Of a stretch of DNA of 64,000 nucleotides, positions 2-47,491 are shown piece by piece. This stretch comes from an uncultured Acidimicrobiia bacterium (GTDB lineage: Bacteria > Actinomycetota > Acidimicrobiia > IMCC26256 > JAENVU01). How positions within the stretch are numbered: position 1 is the first letter of the stretch; each line of letters opens with the position of its first letter. The stretch lies in NCBI GenBank assembly GCA_963820025.1, contig CAWFYL010000003.1:451647-515646 (forward strand), read 5' to 3'. The notes beneath the pieces are model-generated. The model was given only the letters and a program-made list of their open reading frames with translations, ran no database searches and was not told the DNA's origin. A program made the position numbers and the translations under genes.

Positions 2-214
2 GTGCTGGCGGTCGGGAGCCCGGTCGAGGTCCGGAACCGGTTCTGCTCGGCGTGGAGCGGCGGGTTCGAGGTCGCCGAGGCGACCGGCACCGGGTACCGG
101 GTGCGCCGACAGTCGGACCGCTACGTGCTGCCGGCCGAGTTCGGCGCCTCGGAGGTCCGTCGACCCGCGGCGCGCACGTTCGCATCCCCCGGCGCGTCGG
201 TCAGCACCCCGTAG
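2..214 (+). CDS. Small beta-rich SH3/Tudor-like domain protein, possibly 5'-truncated by the window edge
   Basis: VEVRNRF..W..GFEV.E....YRVRRQSD..LP..F pattern recurs at the C-terminus of ORF 24682-25419. It overlaps the convergent 3' end of the nitrilase. Confidence 0.55.
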   Translation: MLAVGSPVEVRNRFCSAWSGGFEVAEATGTGYRVRRQSDRYVLPAEFGASEVRRPAARTFASPGASVSTP

Positions 215-1107
215 GTCTCCGGTCGGCGGGTGGCCAGGAACGGGAACAGCGCGAGCCAGTCCCGGCGCTGGTCGAGGTCGAGGTCGGCCACCAGCACCGC
301 GGGTTCGTCACGCGGGGCCTGGACCACGACCCGACCGTAGGGATCGCTCACGAACGACGAGCCGTAGAAGGTGATCGGGCCTTCGGTGCCGATGCGGTTG
401 GGCACGACCATGAACAGGCCGTTGGCGATGCCGTGGGCGCGGATCACCTGCTCCCAGAGCGGCTCGGTGTCGAACGCCGGATGGTCGGGCTCCGATCCGA
501 TCGCGGTCGGGTACACGAGCACCTCCGCGTCGTGGAGCGAGTAGGCGCGCGCCACCTCCGGGAACCACTCGTCCCAGCAGGTCGGGAACCCGAGCCGAGC
601 CCGGTCCACATCGACGACGGGGTAGCCGCTGTCGCCCGGCCGGAAGTAGCGGTCCTCGTAGTAGCCCGCGGTGACGGGCAGGTGCGCCTTGCGCGTGCGG
701 GCGAGCAGGGTCCCGTCCGGCGCCACACAGATCGCGGTGTTGTAACCGAGCCCGCCGTCGTCGGGTTCCTCGTAGAGCGACGCATGCACCGGGACGCCGA
801 CCTCCGCGGCCAGTCCGGCCGCGAAGTCGGAGGTCGGGCCACCGGGCAGCCGCTCGCAGACCACGCCCGCGGCGCTCGGCCCCTCGGGCGTCACCGCGAA
901 GTACGGCGACAGGGTCAGCTCCTGGAGGCAGACGAGGCGGGCTCCCTCCCCGGCCGCGGCGCGCACGCCCTCGGCGAGCGCGGCCCGGTGCTGCGCGGCG
1001 TCCGGGTGCCAGCGCTCCTGCACGAGCCCGACCCGCCACGGCGGCCGGCTCGGCGGATCGACCCGGGCCGGCGAGTCCGGCACCGATCCCGCCGCGATGA
1101 CTCTCAC
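121..1107 (-). CDS. aguB: Carbon-nitrogen hydrolase, probable N-carbamoylputrescine amidase
   Basis: Nitrilase triad in CLQEL, RKAHLP and PTCWDEWFPE; GTGA overlap with the upstream agmatine deiminase. Confidence 0.8.
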   Translation of the reverse strand: MRVIAAGSVPDSPARVDPPSRPPWRVGLVQERWHPDAAQHRAALAEGVRAAAGEGARLVCLQELTLSPYFAVTPEGPSAAGVVCERLPGGPTSDFAAGLAAEVGVPVHASLYEEPDDGGLGYNTAICVAPDGTLLARTRKAHLPVTAGYYEDRYFRPGDSGYPVVDVDRARLGFPTCWDEWFPEVARAYSLHDAEVLVYPTAIGSEPDHPAFDTEPLWEQVIRAHGIANGLFMVVPNRIGTEGPITFYGSSFVSDPYGRVVVQAPRDEPAVLVADLDLDQRRDWLALFPFLATRRPETYGVLTDAPGDANVRAAGRRTSEAPNSAGST

Positions 1108-2143
1108 GCCGGCACCGGCTGGGTGATGCAGTGCACGCCGCCGCCGCCGTACGCGAGGACCGCGCCGGGCAGGCCGATCACGTCACGGTCGGGGAAGCAC
1201 CCGGCGATCAGCTCGAGCACCGACGGGTCCGCCGGATCGCCCGTGATCGGGACGAGCACCGCGCCGTTGACCGGGGAGAGGTTCACGTACGGGACGGGCA
1301 CGCGCATCCCCCCGATGCTCGCGTACGGCAGGACCGGCACCTCCGTGACGTCGATCCCGGCCCGTTCGAGCGTCTCCCGGCTCGCGGCCGCGATGGCGTG
1401 GTTCGGGTTCGTGGGGTCGGCGCACCCCTGGAGGAGACACCGCCCGGGGGCATGGAACGCGACCACGTTGTCGACGTGGCCGTCGGTCCCCGCGTCCTCC
1501 GCGATCCCGTCCGCGAGCCAGACGACGGTGTCCGCACCGGTCGCGCGCAGCAGTGCCGTGTCGATCTCCGCGCGCGCGACCGGCCCGGGTTCCGGTTCGG
1601 GTTGAGCAGGCAGCGCTCGGTCGTCACGACGATGCCCTCGCCGTCCAGCGCGACCGCGCCACCCTCACCGGCGATCCCGACGTCGTAGGAGACGAAGCCC
1701 AGGTGCTCCGCGAGCCGAGCCGCGATCGTCGCGTCCCGCCCGAACGGCGTGAACGACCCGCCCCAGCCGGTGAACCGGAAGCAGAGCGCATGCCGGATGC
1801 CATCGCGTGCGACCGCGGTCACCGGACCCGAGTCACGCAGCCACGAGTCGTCGATCGGTTCGGTGACCAGCTCGATCGCGTCGCCGCCGACCTGCGCCGC
1901 CGCGGTCTCCTCGTCCGCGGGGTCGACGACGAGCAGCACGGGTTCGAAGCGGGCGATGGTGTGCGCGACGAGCGCGTGCACGTCACGCGCCGCGTCGAGC
2001 TGACCGCCCCAGAGCTGCTCCCGCCGCGATGACGTGGGCCAGGCGAGGAGCGTGCGCTCGTGTGGGCCGGTCTCCGGCGGCACCCGCGCGCCCTCCGGGA
2101 GCGACGCGAGCGGCTCGGCGGCGCCGGTGGGCCCTTCGGGCAT
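1104..2143 (-). CDS. aguA: Agmatine deiminase (frameshift near 1570-1580)
   Basis: WLRDSGP, GEGGAV, LLNPNRN in one frame; TDGHVDN and GGGGVHCITQ in another; the shift lies in a (CG)n run. Confidence 0.85.
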
Positions 2144-8392: not shown

Positions 8393-9993
8393 TCACTGCG
8401 GCCGGTTCAGCCGCCGGAACATCGACTTCTGGGCCTTGTAGAGCTTGGGGAACTCGGCGTAGAGGCGGTCGTAGGTCTTCCGGTTGGCGTGGTCCGGTCG
8501 GAAGGTCGCGTCCACCTCCACCAGGTCCCGCACCTCGTCCTGGTGCACCGCGCCGAGCGCGAGCCCGGCGAGGAGCGCCGCGCCGCGGCAGGTTCGCGTC
8601 GACCGGGTCGGCGACGCGCTCGATCGTGCGGTCCAGCACGTCGGCGTGGATCTGGCACCAGAGGTCCGACTGCGCGCCGCCGCCGATGAACCGCAGATGG
8701 TCCAGTCGCCGCTTCGTGAACTGCTCGACCGCGTCGTGCAGCCAGCGGCTGTTGTACGCGACCCCCTCGAGCACCGCGCGAACGAGATGGGAGCGCGTGG
8801 TCGCGAGCGACAGGTTGTGGAAGCCGCCGCGGGCGTACCGGTCGTCGACCGGCGATCGCTCGCCGGAGAGCCAGGGCGTGAACAGGACGTCGTCGGCACC
8901 GGGCGCGACGGACGCCGCCGCGTGGGTCAGCGCGGTGTAGGCCGGAGCGTCGACCGGCCCGAGGCCGTCGTCGGGCGCGATGACCTGCTCCCGCAGCCAC
9001 TGCAGGCATGCACCCCCGGTCTCGTGGTTGTTCGCAACCAGGTAGCGATCGGGCGTGAGGCCGGGAACGGTCGCGATCTGGTGGAGCACGTCGGTCTTCT
9101 TGAACGGGACGGAGCAGCCGATCCAGGACGTGGTGCTGATCGCGAGGTGGGTCTCGTAGTCGAGCACCGTGCCGGCACCGACCGCGCCCGAGTGCAGGTC
9201 GGGGGTCCCCGCGACGACGCGGACGCCGTCGGGCAGGCCGAGGGCGCGGGCCACCTCCGGCAGCACCGTGCCGACGACCGACGCGGTCGCGCGCAGCGGC
9301 GGGAGGCGGTGCGCGGCTGACGCCCGAGCGACGGACGAGATCGGGGTCGTACTCGAGCCGCTCGAGGTCGCGGTTGTCGGTGAGCCAGGCGCCGGTCATC
9401 GACGCGTGGGACGCGGTCGCGACGCCGGTGAACTGCATCGAGAGGTAGTCGACCGGCTCCAGGAACCACCGGGCCGCGCGCGTCACCTCGGGCTCGTCGT
9501 GGAGGAGGTGGAGCATGTGGCCGATCGGGTCCGCCCCCGTCGTCGAGGGCGCGCCCGCGGTGCGGCGCACCCACACGGCAAGGGGAACCGGCGCGTACCC
9601 GGCCAAGGGGCCGGCGATGACCCGCTTCGCGTACGGCGCGCCCCGGCTGTCCATCCAGAGGACGCACTCGCCGACCGGGCTCCCTTGCGCGTCGACGGGA
9701 ACCGTGCTCGACCACTGTCCGGTGCAGCTCACGGCCTCGACCTGCCCGGGGCGGACCGCGCCCGAGGCGATCGCCCGCTGCGCCGCGTCGCGCACCAGGT
9801 CCCACCACTCGGCCGCGTCCTGCACCGCGCCACCCCCCGGGAGGAGGTGGGTCTCGACGGGGCAGTGGTCGCTCCACGCGACCCTGCCGGTGAGCGACAC
9901 CAGGCCCACCTTGGGTCCCCCGGTACCGAGATCGATCGCGAGGACGAAGCGCTCCGCGCGATCCGCGGGCGTCGCCGGGAAGGGGTCGCTCAA
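8393..9993 (-). CDS. FGGY-family (xylulokinase-like) kinase, frameshifts near 9311 and 8588
   Basis: LAIDLGTGG, CTGQWSS, WMDSRG, DLHSGAVG, PWLSGERSP, VLEGVA and GGGAQS spread over three frames; TTG start overlaps the upstream stop. Confidence 0.85.
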
Positions 9994-11378
9994 CTCTTCG
10001 GGAGGACGGTGAGCTGGCTGTCCATCATGTCGGCCATCACCGCGCGGATGAACTCGTCGGCCTCCTCGGTGAGCCCGCCGACGACGCCCCCGTAGATCGC
10101 GCCCGACTTGGGCGCCTCGTTCGCGTGCTGCTTGGCGTACGCCACCGCGTCGGCGAGATCGGTGGCGAACGTCTCGGCCACGCCGGGCTGCGTCTGCGGT
10201 CGGGTCACGGCCATGTGGATCGCGTTCGGGTACTGCTGGCCGTTGAAGCGCCAACCGCGTGTCCGCATGAAGTCGTTGACGTGGTAGATGTCGAACTCGT
10301 CCGACGTGAAGCTGAACACGAACGTCGGGCTGCCCATGATGCGCAGCTCCGGGTGGGACAGCACCGCGGTCTTCATCACGTCCGCGGTCTCGAAGATCGC
10401 CTTGGCGTAGCCCCGGTAGCCGTCACGACCGAGCGTCACGAGCGCGGCCCACGTCGCGGCGAGCAGCCCGCCCGAGCGGGAGCCCTCGATGCCGGGCGAG
10501 CAGTACTTGCCGCCGCTCCAACCGGTCAGGAAGAAGTACTGGCCGTTGCGCAGCGCCTTGTCGCGGAACGCGAGCACCGAGGTGCCCTTGAAGGCGTAGC
10601 CGTACTTGTGCGTGTCGGCCGAGATGCTCGTGACGCCGGGAACGCGGAAGTCGAACGTCGGGATGTCGTAGCCGAGCTCCTGACCGAACGGGAGGATCCA
10701 GCCGCCGAGGCAGCCGTCGACGTGGAGGCCGATCCCGTGCTCGAGCGCCACGTCCGAGAGCGCGGCGATCGGGTCGATCGTGCCGTAGCCGTAGTTGCAC
10801 GCCGAACCGACGAGGGCGACCGTGTCGTCGTCGACGTGGTCGGCGACCCATCCCACGTCGACCTGCAACGTGTCCGGGTCCACCGGCGCGTTGCGGACCT
10901 CGATGCCGAAGAGATGGCAGCCCTTGTCGAACGCCGGATGCGCGGTCTCGGGCTTGATCACGTTGGGCCGGGTCACGCCCTTCGCCGCGCCCTGCTCGCG
11001 GTAGGCGATCATCGCGTGCAGGATGCTGCCCGTCCCGCCGGTGGTGACGAGACCGACGGGCTCCGAGCCGGTCACCGCCTCGGCGTGGAGCAGGTCGAGG
11101 GTCATCGCGATGATCTCGCCCTCGAACTTCGTCTGGCTCGGGCACATGTCACGCTGCAGCGCGTTCACGTGGGCGAAGAGCCCGAACGCCTCGGTCATGA
11201 ACGCGTAGTGCTCGTGGTCGCCGCAGTACATCGTCCCGGAGCACTTGCCGCTCTCCCAGGCCCTGTCCTCCTCGTGGGCCATGGTGGCGAGCTCGGCCAG
11301 GATCTCGGCCCGCGGGCGTCCCTGCTCGGGGAGGGTCCGGTTCACCGGGAAGCGGTCTTCGTACGGGTTCTCGGCCAC
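9990..11378 (-). CDS. PLP-dependent enzyme, sphingosine-1-phosphate lyase-like
   Basis: CSGTMY, TTGGTGSI, AHPAFDK, HVDGCLGG, SADTHKYGYAFKG (PLP lysine) and GSRSGG. Confidence 0.8.
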   Translation of the reverse strand: MAENPYEDRFPVNRTLPEQGRPRAEILAELATMAHEEDRAWESGKCSGTMYCGDHEHYAFMTEAFGLFAHVNALQRDMCPSQTKFEGEIIAMTLDLLHAEAVTGSEPVGLVTTGGTGSILHAMIAYREQGAAKGVTRPNVIKPETAHPAFDKGCHLFGIEVRNAPVDPDTLQVDVGWVADHVDDDTVALVGSACNYGYGTIDPIAALSDVALEHGIGLHVDGCLGGWILPFGQELGYDIPTFDFRVPGVTSISADTHKYGYAFKGTSVLAFRDKALRNGQYFFLTGWSGGKYCSPGIEGSRSGGLLAATWAALVTLGRDGYRGYAKAIFETADVMKTAVLSHPELRIMGSPTFVFSFTSDEFDIYHVNDFMRTRGWRFNGQQYPNAIHMAVTRPQTQPGVAETFATDLADAVAYAKQHANEAPKSGAIYGGVVGGLTEEADEFIRAVMADMMDSQLTVLPKS

Positions 11379-11468: not shown

Positions 11469-11620
11469 CTGAGCGGCTGCAACCGTGCTCGTCGCACGGC
11501 AGGTTCGTGCCGATGCTTCCCGCCCGTCGCAGAACCCCGTCAGGGCCGCTCAGGAGGAAGACGGCAGGTTCGTGCCGATGCTTCCCGCCACCCCGCAGAA
11601 CCCCGTCAGGGCCGCTCAGG
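11469..11620. repeat. ~85-bp element with 9-bp terminal inverted repeats plus a tandem partial second copy (65-bp period)
   Basis: CTGAGCGGC at 11469 and GCCGCTCAG at 11545-11553; 11496-11554 is repeated at 11561-11620; related copy at 34710-34794. Confidence 0.75.
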
Positions 11621-12314
11621 AACAGGACAGGAGGGCGAAGTCCATCTCGCGGCGGACGGTGAACCCGAGCGCCTCGTAGAGCCGGATCGCGGGGGTGTTC
11701 GAGCTGACCGCGTGGAGGCACGCCACCTCGCCCCGGCCGAGGATCCCGTCGACCAGCTGCCCGACGAGGACCTTGGCGAGCCCGCGCCCCCGGTGGTCCG
11801 CATCGGTGCAGACCGCGCTGATCTCGGTGAAGCCCGGGAGCCGCATCCGGGTGCCCGCCAGCGCGACGAGCGCATCGCCGTCCCGGATCCCGAGGTACGG
11901 GCCGAGCTCGATCGTCCGCGCGAGCAGCGGGCCGGGCTGGGCGCGCTCGACCAGGCCCATCATCGCGGGGACGTCGGCCGGTCCGAGGCGTTCGACCTCG
12001 CACCCGTCGCGGGCGGGCACGTCGACGGCCGGGTGGTCGCACACCATCTGCGTGCCGGGGGCGCGGAACCGTTCGGTCCAGCCCGGTGGCACCCCGACGA
12101 CGTCGCGCACGACGACCGCGCTCCCGCCCGCACCCACGAGCGCGCCGAGCGCGTCCCAGCTCGCCCGCGCCGGCTCGTCGGCGACCGCCGCGAAGACCGA
12201 CACTTCGGGGTCGTAGCGGAGGGCGAGCGCGTCTCCTTCCGCGACCGTGGCCTGCGGGCCCGTGAGGGCGTGCCACACCGGGTTGTCGAGCACGTGCACG
12301 CCGCATCCTGGCAC
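11616..12314 (-). CDS. GNAT acetyltransferase (FR47-like C-terminal domain); true start may be 12299
   Basis: LDNPVWHAL, EISAVCTDADHRGRGLA and NTPAIRLYEALGF. Confidence 0.85.
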   Translation of the reverse strand: MPGCGVHVLDNPVWHALTGPQATVAEGDALALRYDPEVSVFAAVADEPARASWDALGALVGAGGSAVVVRDVVGVPPGWTERFRAPGTQMVCDHPAVDVPARDGCEVERLGPADVPAMMGLVERAQPGPLLARTIELGPYLGIRDGDALVALAGTRMRLPGFTEISAVCTDADHRGRGLAKVLVGQLVDGILGRGEVACLHAVSSNTPAIRLYEALGFTVRREMDFALLSCS

Positions 12315-12621: not shown

Positions 12622-13857
12622 GGCGGGTTCAACCGGTCGTCGCAACGAGTTGGGCGAGTCGTTCGGCTGGGGTTTGCCAGTCCAGAGTTTGGCGTGGCCG
12701 GCCGTTGAGTTGCACGGCGACGGCGTCGAGGTGGTCCTGGGTGACGTTCCGCAGGCTGGTGCCTTTCGGGAAGTATTGGCGGAGCAGACCGTTGGTGTTC
12801 TCGTTCGAGCCGCGTTGCCATGGGCTGTGGGGGTCGCAGAAGTAGACGTCGATGCCCGTCGCGATGGTGAAGAGCTGGTGCTGGGCCAGCTCGCGGCCCT
12901 GGTCCCAAGTCAGTGACCGCCATAGGTGCTCAGGCAGGGTCGCGACTCGTTCGAGCAGCGCCTGGCGAACGGTCTCGGCCCGCTGGTCGGCGATCCGGGC
13001 GAGCATCACGTACCGCGTCGCACGTTCGACCAGGGTGGCGATCGCGCTCTTGTTGTTCTTGCCGATGATGAGGTCGCCTTCCCAGTGGCCGGGAACGGCT
13101 CGGTCGTCGACCTCGGCGGGCCGCTCGGAGATCATCACCATGTTCGGAATGGATCCCCGCCGTTCCACTCGTCCCTGCGGGCGGCGTCGGGCTCGACCCG
13201 TGCGCAGACACCGCGCGAGTTCGCGGCGGAGCTCACCGCGCCCCTGGATGTAGATCGATTTGTAGATCGTCTCGTGCGACACCCACATCTCCGGCCGGTC
13301 CGCGAACTCGGCCCGCAGCCTCCTCTGGATCTGTTTCGGTGACCACCACCGTTCCAGATCGGCCACGACCCGCCCGCAGAGCTCACCGTTGACCGCCAGC
13401 TTCGTCGGCTTCGGCCGGCGAGCACAGCACGCCGCACGCCGATGGGCCGCGACCGGTCGATAGCCGTCTCGGCCACCATTGGCGCGCACTTCCCGACACA
13501 CCGTCGATGATGCCCGGCCCAGCCCCCGAGCGATCGCAGTCAGTGACCTGCCCACCTCGAGACCAACGCGAATCTCGAGCCGTTCCTCCAACGAGAGCCG
13601 CTTCGGTGACGGCTCCCACACCACGTCGCTGCGGGTGACACCACCCCAATCCCGCAGCGCGATCGTGATCGCACCCATCGACGTGTCGACCTGCTCCAAG
13701 ATCTCCCGATACGTCGCGCCCTTCGCCGCCAACCGGATGATCCGCCGCCTCAGATCACGGTCCAACCTGCGCCACGGTCCCTTCGCCACCACAACCTCCT
13801 CGTCGAGCCAAGCCTCACGACTCGACCCTCCCGTTGCAGTGATCCCTTGAACCCGCC
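12622..13857 (-). mobile_element. IS30-family insertion sequence, apparently complete
   Basis: Inverted ends GGCGGGTTCAA..GCAAC and GTTGC..TTGAACCCGCC; CGC flanks both sides (3-bp duplication). Confidence 0.9.
12629..13792 (-). CDS. tnp: IS30-family DDE transposase
   Basis: GHWEGDLIIG, LTWDQGRE and HSPWQRGSNENTNGLLRQYFPKG; N-terminal HTHs. Confidence 0.95.
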   Translation of the reverse strand: MVAKGPWRRLDRDLRRRIIRLAAKGATYREILEQVDTSMGAITIALRDWGGVTRSDVVWEPSPKRLSLEERLEIRVGLEVGRSLTAIARGLGRASSTVCREVRANGGRDGYRPVAAHRRAACCARRPKPTKLAVNGELCGRVVADLERWWSPKQIQRRLRAEFADRPEMWVSHETIYKSIYIQGRGELRRELARCLRTGRARRRPQGRVERRGSIPNMVMISERPAEVDDRAVPGHWEGDLIIGKNNKSAIATLVERATRYVMLARIADQRAETVRQALLERVATLPEHLWRSLTWDQGRELAQHQLFTIATGIDVYFCDPHSPWQRGSNENTNGLLRQYFPKGTSLRNVTQDHLDAVAVQLNGRPRQTLDWQTPAERLAQLVATTG

Positions 13858-46234: not shown

Positions 46235-47491
46235 GTGGACGACATCGAGATCCCCGGGGGCTCGGGCGCGCAGCTGGCCGCGCGGGGCCGCGACGCCACG
46301 GCGATCCTGGACGACCTCGCGCAGCGCCAGGCGCGGGAACCGGACGTGCACGGGAACCGACTGTTCGGGCTCGTGTACCCGACCGCACGCGACGACCTCG
46401 AAGCGCTGCTCGAGGAGGTCAACCGGCGCTACCTCTTCGGCAACGCGCTGAACCCGTTCAAGTTCCAGGAGCTCGCGGCGCTCCAGGACGACGTGGTCTC
46501 GATCACCCGTGGGTTGCTGCACCACGGCGAGCGCGGCGGCGGGACCATGACGTCCGGCGGCACCGAGTCGATCCTGATGTCGATGCTCGTGAATCGGGAG
46601 CGCGCCCGCCTCCGCGGCGTGGAACGGCCCGAGATCCTCGCGCCGGTGTCGGCTCACCCGGCCTACTCGAAGGCCGCGCACTACTTCGGCATGGACGTCG
46701 TGCGTGTCCCGCTCGACGGCGACTCCCGAGCGGACCTGGCCGCCGCGTCGTCGCTGATCGGTCCCTCGACCGCCGTCGTCGTCGCGTCCGCGTTCTCCTA
46801 CCCCTACGGGATCATGGATCCGGTCGAGGGGCTCGCCGCGCTCGCGGCCGAGCACGGCGTCGGGTGCCACGTCGACGCGTGCATCGGCGGGTTCGTGCTG
46901 CCGTTCCTGGAGCGGCTCGGCCATGACGTGCCGCCGTGGGACTTCCGGGTCGAGGGCGTCACCGAGATCTCGGCCGACGTGCACAAGTACGGCTACTGCC
47001 CGAAGGGCGCCTCCGTGATCCTCCACCGGGACGACGACTGGTTCGGCCACCAGGTGTTCCTTTACGACGACTGGGGCTCGGGCCTCTACGGGTCACCGGG
47101 AATCGCGGGTGCGCGCCCGGCGGCGCCGATCGCGACCGCGTGGGCCGCGCTCACGTACCTCGGTGAGCAGGGCTACGTCGACATCATGCGCGACCTCATG
47201 GCGACGACCACGCGGGTACGGGACGGTGTGGAAGCCATCGGCGGGATCGAGATCGTGGGTGACCCGATCGGTCCGGTGCTCGCGCTGCGGTCGGACGTCG
47301 TGGACCTGTACGCCGTCGGTGACGTGATGGACGACAAGGGTTGGAACCTGAATCGCAACACCGAGCCCCCCGGGCTCCACCTCATGCTCTCGCCGGCCCA
47401 CGGAGCGGTCGCCGACCAGCTCGTCGCCGATCTCGGAGACGCCGTCGCCCACCACGGCGACTCCCGCGGGGTGGAGGCCCGCTACGCATGA
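46235..47491 (+). CDS. Second sphingosine-1-phosphate-lyase-like PLP enzyme
   Basis: TSGGTESI, AHPAYSK, HVDACIGG and SADVHKYGYCPKG. Confidence 0.8.
   Translation: MDDIEIPGGSGAQLAARGRDATAILDDLAQRQAREPDVHGNRLFGLVYPTARDDLEALLEEVNRRYLFGNALNPFKFQELAALQDDVVSITRGLLHHGERGGGTMTSGGTESILMSMLVNRERARLRGVERPEILAPVSAHPAYSKAAHYFGMDVVRVPLDGDSRADLAAASSLIGPSTAVVVASAFSYPYGIMDPVEGLAALAAEHGVGCHVDACIGGFVLPFLERLGHDVPPWDFRVEGVTEISADVHKYGYCPKGASVILHRDDDWFGHQVFLYDDWGSGLYGSPGIAGARPAAPIATAWAALTYLGEQGYVDIMRDLMATTTRVRDGVEAIGGIEIVGDPIGPVLALRSDVVDLYAVGDVMDDKGWNLNRNTEPPGLHLMLSPAHGAVADQLVADLGDAVAHHGDSRGVEARYA

Follow-up and report, generated by a model that had tools for sequence, protein, structure and literature searches.

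A conserved sphingosine-1-phosphate lyase–FGGY kinase gene pair in Acidimicrobiia, probably an undescribed bacterial route for phosphorylating and splitting sphingosine-like amino-alcohols

The lyase-kinase locus

The window (the whole stretch of DNA that was analysed, 64,000 nt) comes from a soil-type Acidimicrobiia bacterium. On its minus strand it encodes a group II pyridoxal phosphate (PLP) enzyme of the sphingosine-1-phosphate (S1P) lyase family and an FGGY-family kinase, with the following features:

9990..11378, minus strand: S1P-lyase-family PLP enzyme (462 aa, GTG start, intact; PF00282)
9990..9993, minus strand: TTGA overlap of the lyase stop and the kinase start (read from the sequence; also present in L001-L005)
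8393..9993, minus strand: FGGY-family kinase of an uncharacterised clade (three frames in the assembly, 532 aa if intact; PF00370 and PF02782)
~9316 (approximate), minus strand: first single-base insertion in the kinase gene (blastn against L001)
~8588 (approximate), minus strand: second single-base insertion in the kinase gene (blastn against L001)

The overlap reported by the initial annotation at 9990-9993 is borne out by the sequence, with the lyase TGA at 9992-9990 and the kinase TTG at 9993-9991. This TTG is the single standard start ahead of the D-x-G-T motif of the kinase. Among relatives, the TTGA overlap occurs in the five closest and GTGA in five more, and the genes are separated by gaps of 9-54 nt in others. 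The kinase gene, which ends at 8393, and an acyl-ACP desaturase gene are arranged tail to tail. The flanking desaturase, GNAT and ANTAR genes were considered as parts of the pathway and rejected, as they are common to the closest relatives only. No sigma-70 promoter was found in a search of the locus. An element of ~65 bp is present in two tandem copies upstream of the lyase (11496-11634), overlapping the stop of the GNAT gene, and a gene recognised by eye as an IS30-like transposase occupies 12629-13792 (minus strand). Also in the window (121-2032) are genes for N-carbamoylputrescine amidase and an apparently frameshifted agmatine deiminase. Members of these two families are encoded directly after a divergent kinase of the same clade at another locus (L225:4050-7410).

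The initial annotation described the kinase as translationally coupled to the lyase. It missed that the kinase frame is broken twice in the assembly: FGGY_N begins in one frame, its remainder and FGGY_C are read in a second, and a third encodes the last 50 residues. In a blastn comparison with L001 (92% DNA identity, same TTGA, intact 532-aa kinase), the gene carries two surplus bases and no more. The three pieces match the intact L001 protein at 84-93% identity and contain no stop codons. Two other genes of this genome are similarly affected relative to L001: glmS (G000 C1 512194-515639) is spread across three frames by two single-base insertions, and truA (G000 C1 521967-522741) across two frames by one. 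As glmS and truA are broken by like insertions, errors of this type seem to be scattered through the assembly; thus, the two +1 insertions in the kinase are probably assembly errors and the gene is probably intact in the cell.

The genome also encodes an intact kinase paralogue (G000 C1:515656-517230; L093:7654-9231) that is 47% identical, has a Q-W-L signature and is located between glmM and glmS. No lyase is encoded nearby, and the same is true of L111. The occurrence of two frameshifts within 1.6 kb, together with this paralogue, would suit a true pseudogene, with the module either dead in this organism or served by the C1 copy. Given the same kind of damage in glmS (two shifts) and truA (one), and three stop-free pieces that closely match the L001 protein, we consider decay of the gene improbable; it is in any case compatible with any functional reading of the family. 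Without reads, a frameshift in this assembly is no sound basis for calling a pseudogene.

Relationships of the lyase and the kinase

The best solved relative of the lyase is Burkholderia pseudomallei BPSS2021 (5K1R; E 4e-186, 622 bits), to which it is ~62% identical (hand count, 279/449). The match to StSPL scores 425 bits and those to eukaryotic S1P lyases 300-310 bits (human 4Q6R, E 6e-90). Structures of GAD and MfnA decarboxylases score at most 86 bits, and the protein falls below the cut-offs of both the MfnA and the GAD models. The PLP ligands (G115, T116, H147, D221, C223, H257, K258 and S300, mapped to the list in PMC5234717) are kept. Also kept is the site for the substrate phosphate, where Y51, N72, K264 and S300 correspond to StSPL Y105, N126, K317 and S353 (residue list in PMC10243590). 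The position of StSPL H129 is occupied by Q75, and Gln is also found there in the active BPSS2021. By these criteria the PLP enzyme is a member of the S1P lyase family (EC 4.1.2.27), not a decarboxylase, and its predicted activity is the conversion of S1P to phosphoethanolamine and hexadecenal.

BPSS2021 (S1PL2021; PMC5234717) resembles the lyase in its PLP ligands, the Gln at the H129 position and the lack of an N-terminal extension; its GGTES motif is GGTGS across this Acidimicrobiia subgroup. BPSS2021 splits free sphingosine at ~8% of the rate for S1P (PMC5234717). Thus, phosphate is preferred and not strictly required, and the initial statement that S1P lyases are restricted to phosphorylated amino-alcohols was too strong. 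The genes between the two Burkholderia lyases (BPSS2022-2024) are annotated as a membrane protein, a hypothetical protein and an acetyltransferase (PMC5388805); these annotations do not support a kinase gene in that interval. The window encodes a second, more distant S1P-lyase-like PLP enzyme (46235-47491, plus strand; 37% identical to the lyase) in which Leu replaces the Asn/His phosphate-site region. The group to which it belongs is common in the phylum and was not found adjoining the kinase.

The kinase has FGGY_N and FGGY_C domains and keeps the catalytic D21, T24 and D265. The intact L001 orthologue (P0001) is predicted with high confidence (pLDDT 96.5) to have the FGGY fold, and its model superposes on gluconate, xylulose and glycerol kinases with TM ~0.8, at identities of 20-26%. 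Both domains, the fold and the catalytic Asp/Thr/Asp are shared with XylB, GlpK, FucK, RhaB, AraB, LyxK, LsrK and GntK (PMC3245297). However, the kinase and its relatives form one clade apart from these eight Escherichia coli kinases (99 in a quick tree with long reference branches), at 22-28% identity for the kinase itself (28% to XylB). It scores below the cut-off of every NCBIfam FGGY model, including the best-scoring named one, XylB (TIGR01312; 226 versus 380 bits). Relatives are nevertheless named "xylulokinase" in databases. Sequence comparison places the kinase in an uncharacterised FGGY clade and not with the xylulokinases.

The specificity positions, which in GlpK are R83, E84, Y135, D245 and F270 (PMC3245297), are W94, S95, a third that is poorly aligned, D265 and W290 in the kinase. 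Thus, W/S/W stands at positions 94, 95 and 290 where XylB has M/H/V and GlpK R/E/F (positions from PMC3245297). The clade as a whole has an insertion of ~10 residues with a conserved G-Y..W..GGxP and D155/H159. This insertion and the Trp-Ser signature distinguish the kinase from characterised FGGY kinases, and the nine FGGY functions covered in the same study all act on small polyols, sugars or sugar acids (PMC3245297). The hydroxyl-binding side chains appear to have been replaced, which would fit a less polar substrate. The signature varies with the partner enzyme, being T-[FYM]-[SA] with the dehydrogenase described below and Q-[GT]-E or Q-M-Q with some aminotransferases; thus, the clade may cover several related substrates. 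The kinase has FGGY domains only and lacks a DAGK_cat domain, so it is not a member of the DAGK-fold family of sphingosine kinases, although it may work like one.

Conservation of the pair and other partners of the kinase

The pairing on which the initial annotation built its proposal is conserved. Across 150 evenly sampled Acidimicrobiia genomes (kinase E<=1e-70, lyase E<=1e-100; the unpublished genome G088 is left out of the lyase and kinase counts given here, and nothing here depends on G001, also unpublished), the kinase occurs in 26, the lyase in 26, both in 24 and neither in 122. In all 24 genomes with both, the genes are within ~200 bp of each other, in one of three arrangements (lyase-kinase, kinase-lyase or divergent). 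Pairs come from many families in this sample, although kin are not independent, and the pairing is far beyond chance. The exceptions are a genome with a divergent kinase below the threshold (G449), one with a choline/ethanolamine-kinase-family gene beside the lyase (G525), one with an aminotransferase and an aldolase instead (G502), and one with the kinase at a contig end (G534). The sole lyase of the class without an FGGY neighbour (L233:5301-7609) is divergent from a choline/ethanolamine-kinase-family gene and an amino-acid permease gene; non-orthologous replacement of the kinase is possible in this single case.

At L010 and L032, the lyase is 76-79% identical to this one, whereas its partner kinase is only 35% identical to the kinase here. 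This mismatch and the varying gene order suggest that the pair formed more than once. In a sample of the phylum, all ten published genomes with a lyase scoring at least 385 bits have a kinase of the wider clade, adjacent in seven. The pair also occurs on unclassified contigs and in the phylum to which a Binatia genome belongs. The kinase is within 6 kb in only 24 of the 80 closest lyase loci, and a clade kinase is encoded elsewhere in 12 of 12 tested genomes in which the lyase is alone at its locus. A 990-aa protein with both families (P0316) was considered as a lyase-kinase fusion and rejected as a frameshift read-through: lyase homology ends near residue 364, and the DNA has a normal GTGA overlap in another frame.

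Kinases of the clade are found beside the lyase or, alternatively, beside a GSAM-like class III aminotransferase or a saccharopine-dehydrogenase-like enzyme. All three partner enzymes could use an amine. The aminotransferase comes with a class II aldolase and/or a RuBisCO-like protein, and the saccharopine-dehydrogenase-like enzyme is also often accompanied by the latter. Among 80 metagenome loci around one clade kinase, the aminotransferase is just downstream in 50 and the lyase in 14, and none has both. Trp-Ser kinases paired with the aminotransferase nest among those paired with the lyase (the kinases of L119 and L125 are 68% identical).

Several of these loci have conserved content. A cluster encoding an MFS protein, a TetR regulator, the kinase, the GSAM-like aminotransferase, the RuBisCO-like protein, a 374-aa protein and a class II aldolase recurs at L119 (G387 C8), L137-L188 and L214; it is a candidate for a sphingoid-base route independent of the lyase. 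On a Burkholderia ambifaria plasmid (NZ_CP152372.1, 61682-68426; L106), the kinase is encoded with a class II aldolase, a class III aminotransferase, an SDR and an aldehyde dehydrogenase (ALDH), flanked by IS5 and Tn3 and with an amidase nearby. Genes for the saccharopine-dehydrogenase-like enzyme lie directly upstream of clade kinases at L091, L092, L113-L123, L218, L222-L224, L227 and L228, often with a RuBisCO-like gene, and a glycyl-radical enzyme is encoded at L092.

A neutral ceramidase (PF04734, E 3e-152) is encoded within ~3 kb of the kinase in six loci (L119, L150-152, L158 and L163), which are close kin and have a partner enzyme other than the lyase; their kinases nest among those paired with the lyase. 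An ALDH is directly beside the lyase-kinase pair in three loci, and the one tested (L212) is class 3. These ceramidase and ALDH neighbours are the best evidence for sphingoid bases as substrates. No ceramidase was found beside the lyase-kinase pairs examined, and PF04734 was not found in this genome; it occurs in only two of the 150 Acidimicrobiia genomes, both of which carry the kinase. Weak partial ceramidase matches (24-40% identity) lie downstream of three lyases without an adjacent kinase (L014, L031, L054). With the one model used for serine palmitoyltransferase, the best match in this genome scored 374 bits against a cut-off of 500, giving no sign that the organism makes sphingolipids.

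Proposed function and significance

In eukaryotes, long-chain bases are broken down by a sphingosine kinase, then S1P lyase, then a fatty aldehyde dehydrogenase. The pair described here probably encodes a bacterial pathway, so far undescribed, in which sphingosine-like amino-alcohols are first phosphorylated and then split. We consider it likely that the kinase supplies the lyase with a phosphorylated amino-alcohol of some kind and, with less assurance, favour a sphingoid-base 1-phosphate as that compound. Together, the two genes would serve to degrade or detoxify sphingoid bases (long-chain 2-amino-1,3-diols) that the bacterium scavenges from other organisms. The kinase would transfer phosphate from ATP to C1 of the free base and would thereby stand in for a sphingosine kinase despite its unrelated fold. 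As suggested by close homology to an assayed enzyme, the lyase would then cut the C2-C3 bond to give phosphoethanolamine and a fatty aldehyde, which unlinked general aldehyde dehydrogenases might oxidise and pass into fatty-acid oxidation. Neither of the two checks that the initial annotation proposed as refutations went against it, and the kinase-then-cleave order that it put forward stands as the best reading, because the pair is conserved, the lyase is of the S1P lyase family and the kinase is not XylB; the substrate itself is inferred.

The chemistry and order of steps resemble the eukaryotic sequence of SPHK1/2 or Lcb4/5, SGPL1/Dpl1 and fatty aldehyde dehydrogenase, and the lyases are homologous. 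In contrast, the kinase here has the actin-like FGGY fold (TM ~0.8 to glycerol and xylulose kinases), whereas eukaryotic sphingosine kinases have the DAGK fold. A bacterial dihydrosphingosine kinase likewise makes a sphingoid-base 1-phosphate, but it is reported to resemble mammalian SphK1 structurally and to act in sphingolipid synthesis, and the paper makes no mention of a lyase (PMC9045371). The further claim of the initial annotation, that the route runs without a canonical sphingosine kinase, goes too far, as the genome encodes two DAGK_cat proteins that might provide the phosphate; neither gene is near the pair.

The main rival keeps the order of steps and changes the substrate to a short hydrophilic amino-polyol (a 2-amino-2-deoxy-alditol, a serinol-like compound or an amino-sugar derivative). 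FGGY kinases do act on polyols (PMC3245297), the class II aldolase and RuBisCO-like partners of the clade are typical of sugar-phosphate catabolism, most genomes with the pair are without neutral ceramidase, and some pairs (L099, L103, L105) are bordered by genes for amino-acid permeases or MFS proteins. The replacement of hydroxyl-binding residues by Trp and Ser argues for a different substrate, as do the ceramidases and class-3 ALDH in clade loci and the fact that the closest assayed relatives of the lyase are sphingolipid enzymes; moreover, the neighbourhood of the pair has no conserved gene for a sugar isomerase or a sugar ABC transporter. We regard a short substrate as unlikely.

Less probable still is a kinase that acts after or beside the lyase, on ethanolamine or a hydroxy-aldehyde, with a DAGK-family kinase making the lyase substrate or with no need for phosphate. 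The weak cleavage of unphosphorylated sphingosine by BPSS2021 and the two DAGK_cat genes could be read in this way, but the phosphate site of the lyase is intact and both DAGK genes are remote. In addition, the clade also occurs with aminotransferase, aldolase and RuBisCO-like sets whose known relatives use 1-phospho-ketoses, which fits phosphorylation before cleavage. Finally, the combination named by the initial annotation as the counter-case, a xylulose kinase beside a plain amino-acid decarboxylase, here brought together by chance, is largely refuted and very improbable: it has in its favour the database names and the rank of XylB among named models, and against it the failed XylB cut-off, the low identity to E. 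coli XylB, the lack of the Met-His signature, a separate xylA-xylB-like pair on C1 (a xylose-isomerase-like gene recognised by eye, beside another FGGY gene), the absence of xylose isomerase or pentose genes near the pair, the sub-threshold decarboxylase scores of the lyase and adjacency in 24/24 genomes.

Beyond the favoured pathway of kinase and lyase, it is possible, though we hold it only tentatively, that the clade consists of widespread sphingoid-base kinases that feed both S1P lyase and a lyase-free route. In the latter, the GSAM-like aminotransferase (or the saccharopine-dehydrogenase-like enzyme) would remove the amine from a phytosphingosine-type 1-phosphate to give an alkyl-ketose 1-phosphate, on which the class II aldolase or the RuBisCO-like protein would act to form, for example, DHAP and a fatty aldehyde.

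Searches of an incomplete literature library yielded no paper linking an FGGY or xylulose kinase to S1P lyase, nor one linking sphingosine to a class II aldolase and an aminotransferase. The lyase adds a member to an established family, and eukaryotes provide the precedent for the pathway logic. The novelty would lie in an FGGY kinase performing the first step and in the alternative route without the lyase.

Bacterial S1P lyases have been studied mainly for their action on host S1P, and the pair addresses the question of how substrate is supplied in free-living bacteria. It offers a candidate that can be tested, namely a kinase mis-annotated as "xylulokinase" in many records, whose fold is not known among lipid-acting enzymes. 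If the proposal is correct, a non-homologous sphingosine kinase would be added to those known, a second, lyase-free route would be pointed to in anaerobic-looking lineages, and soil and sediment bacteria would have a means of recycling sphingoid bases or rendering them harmless.
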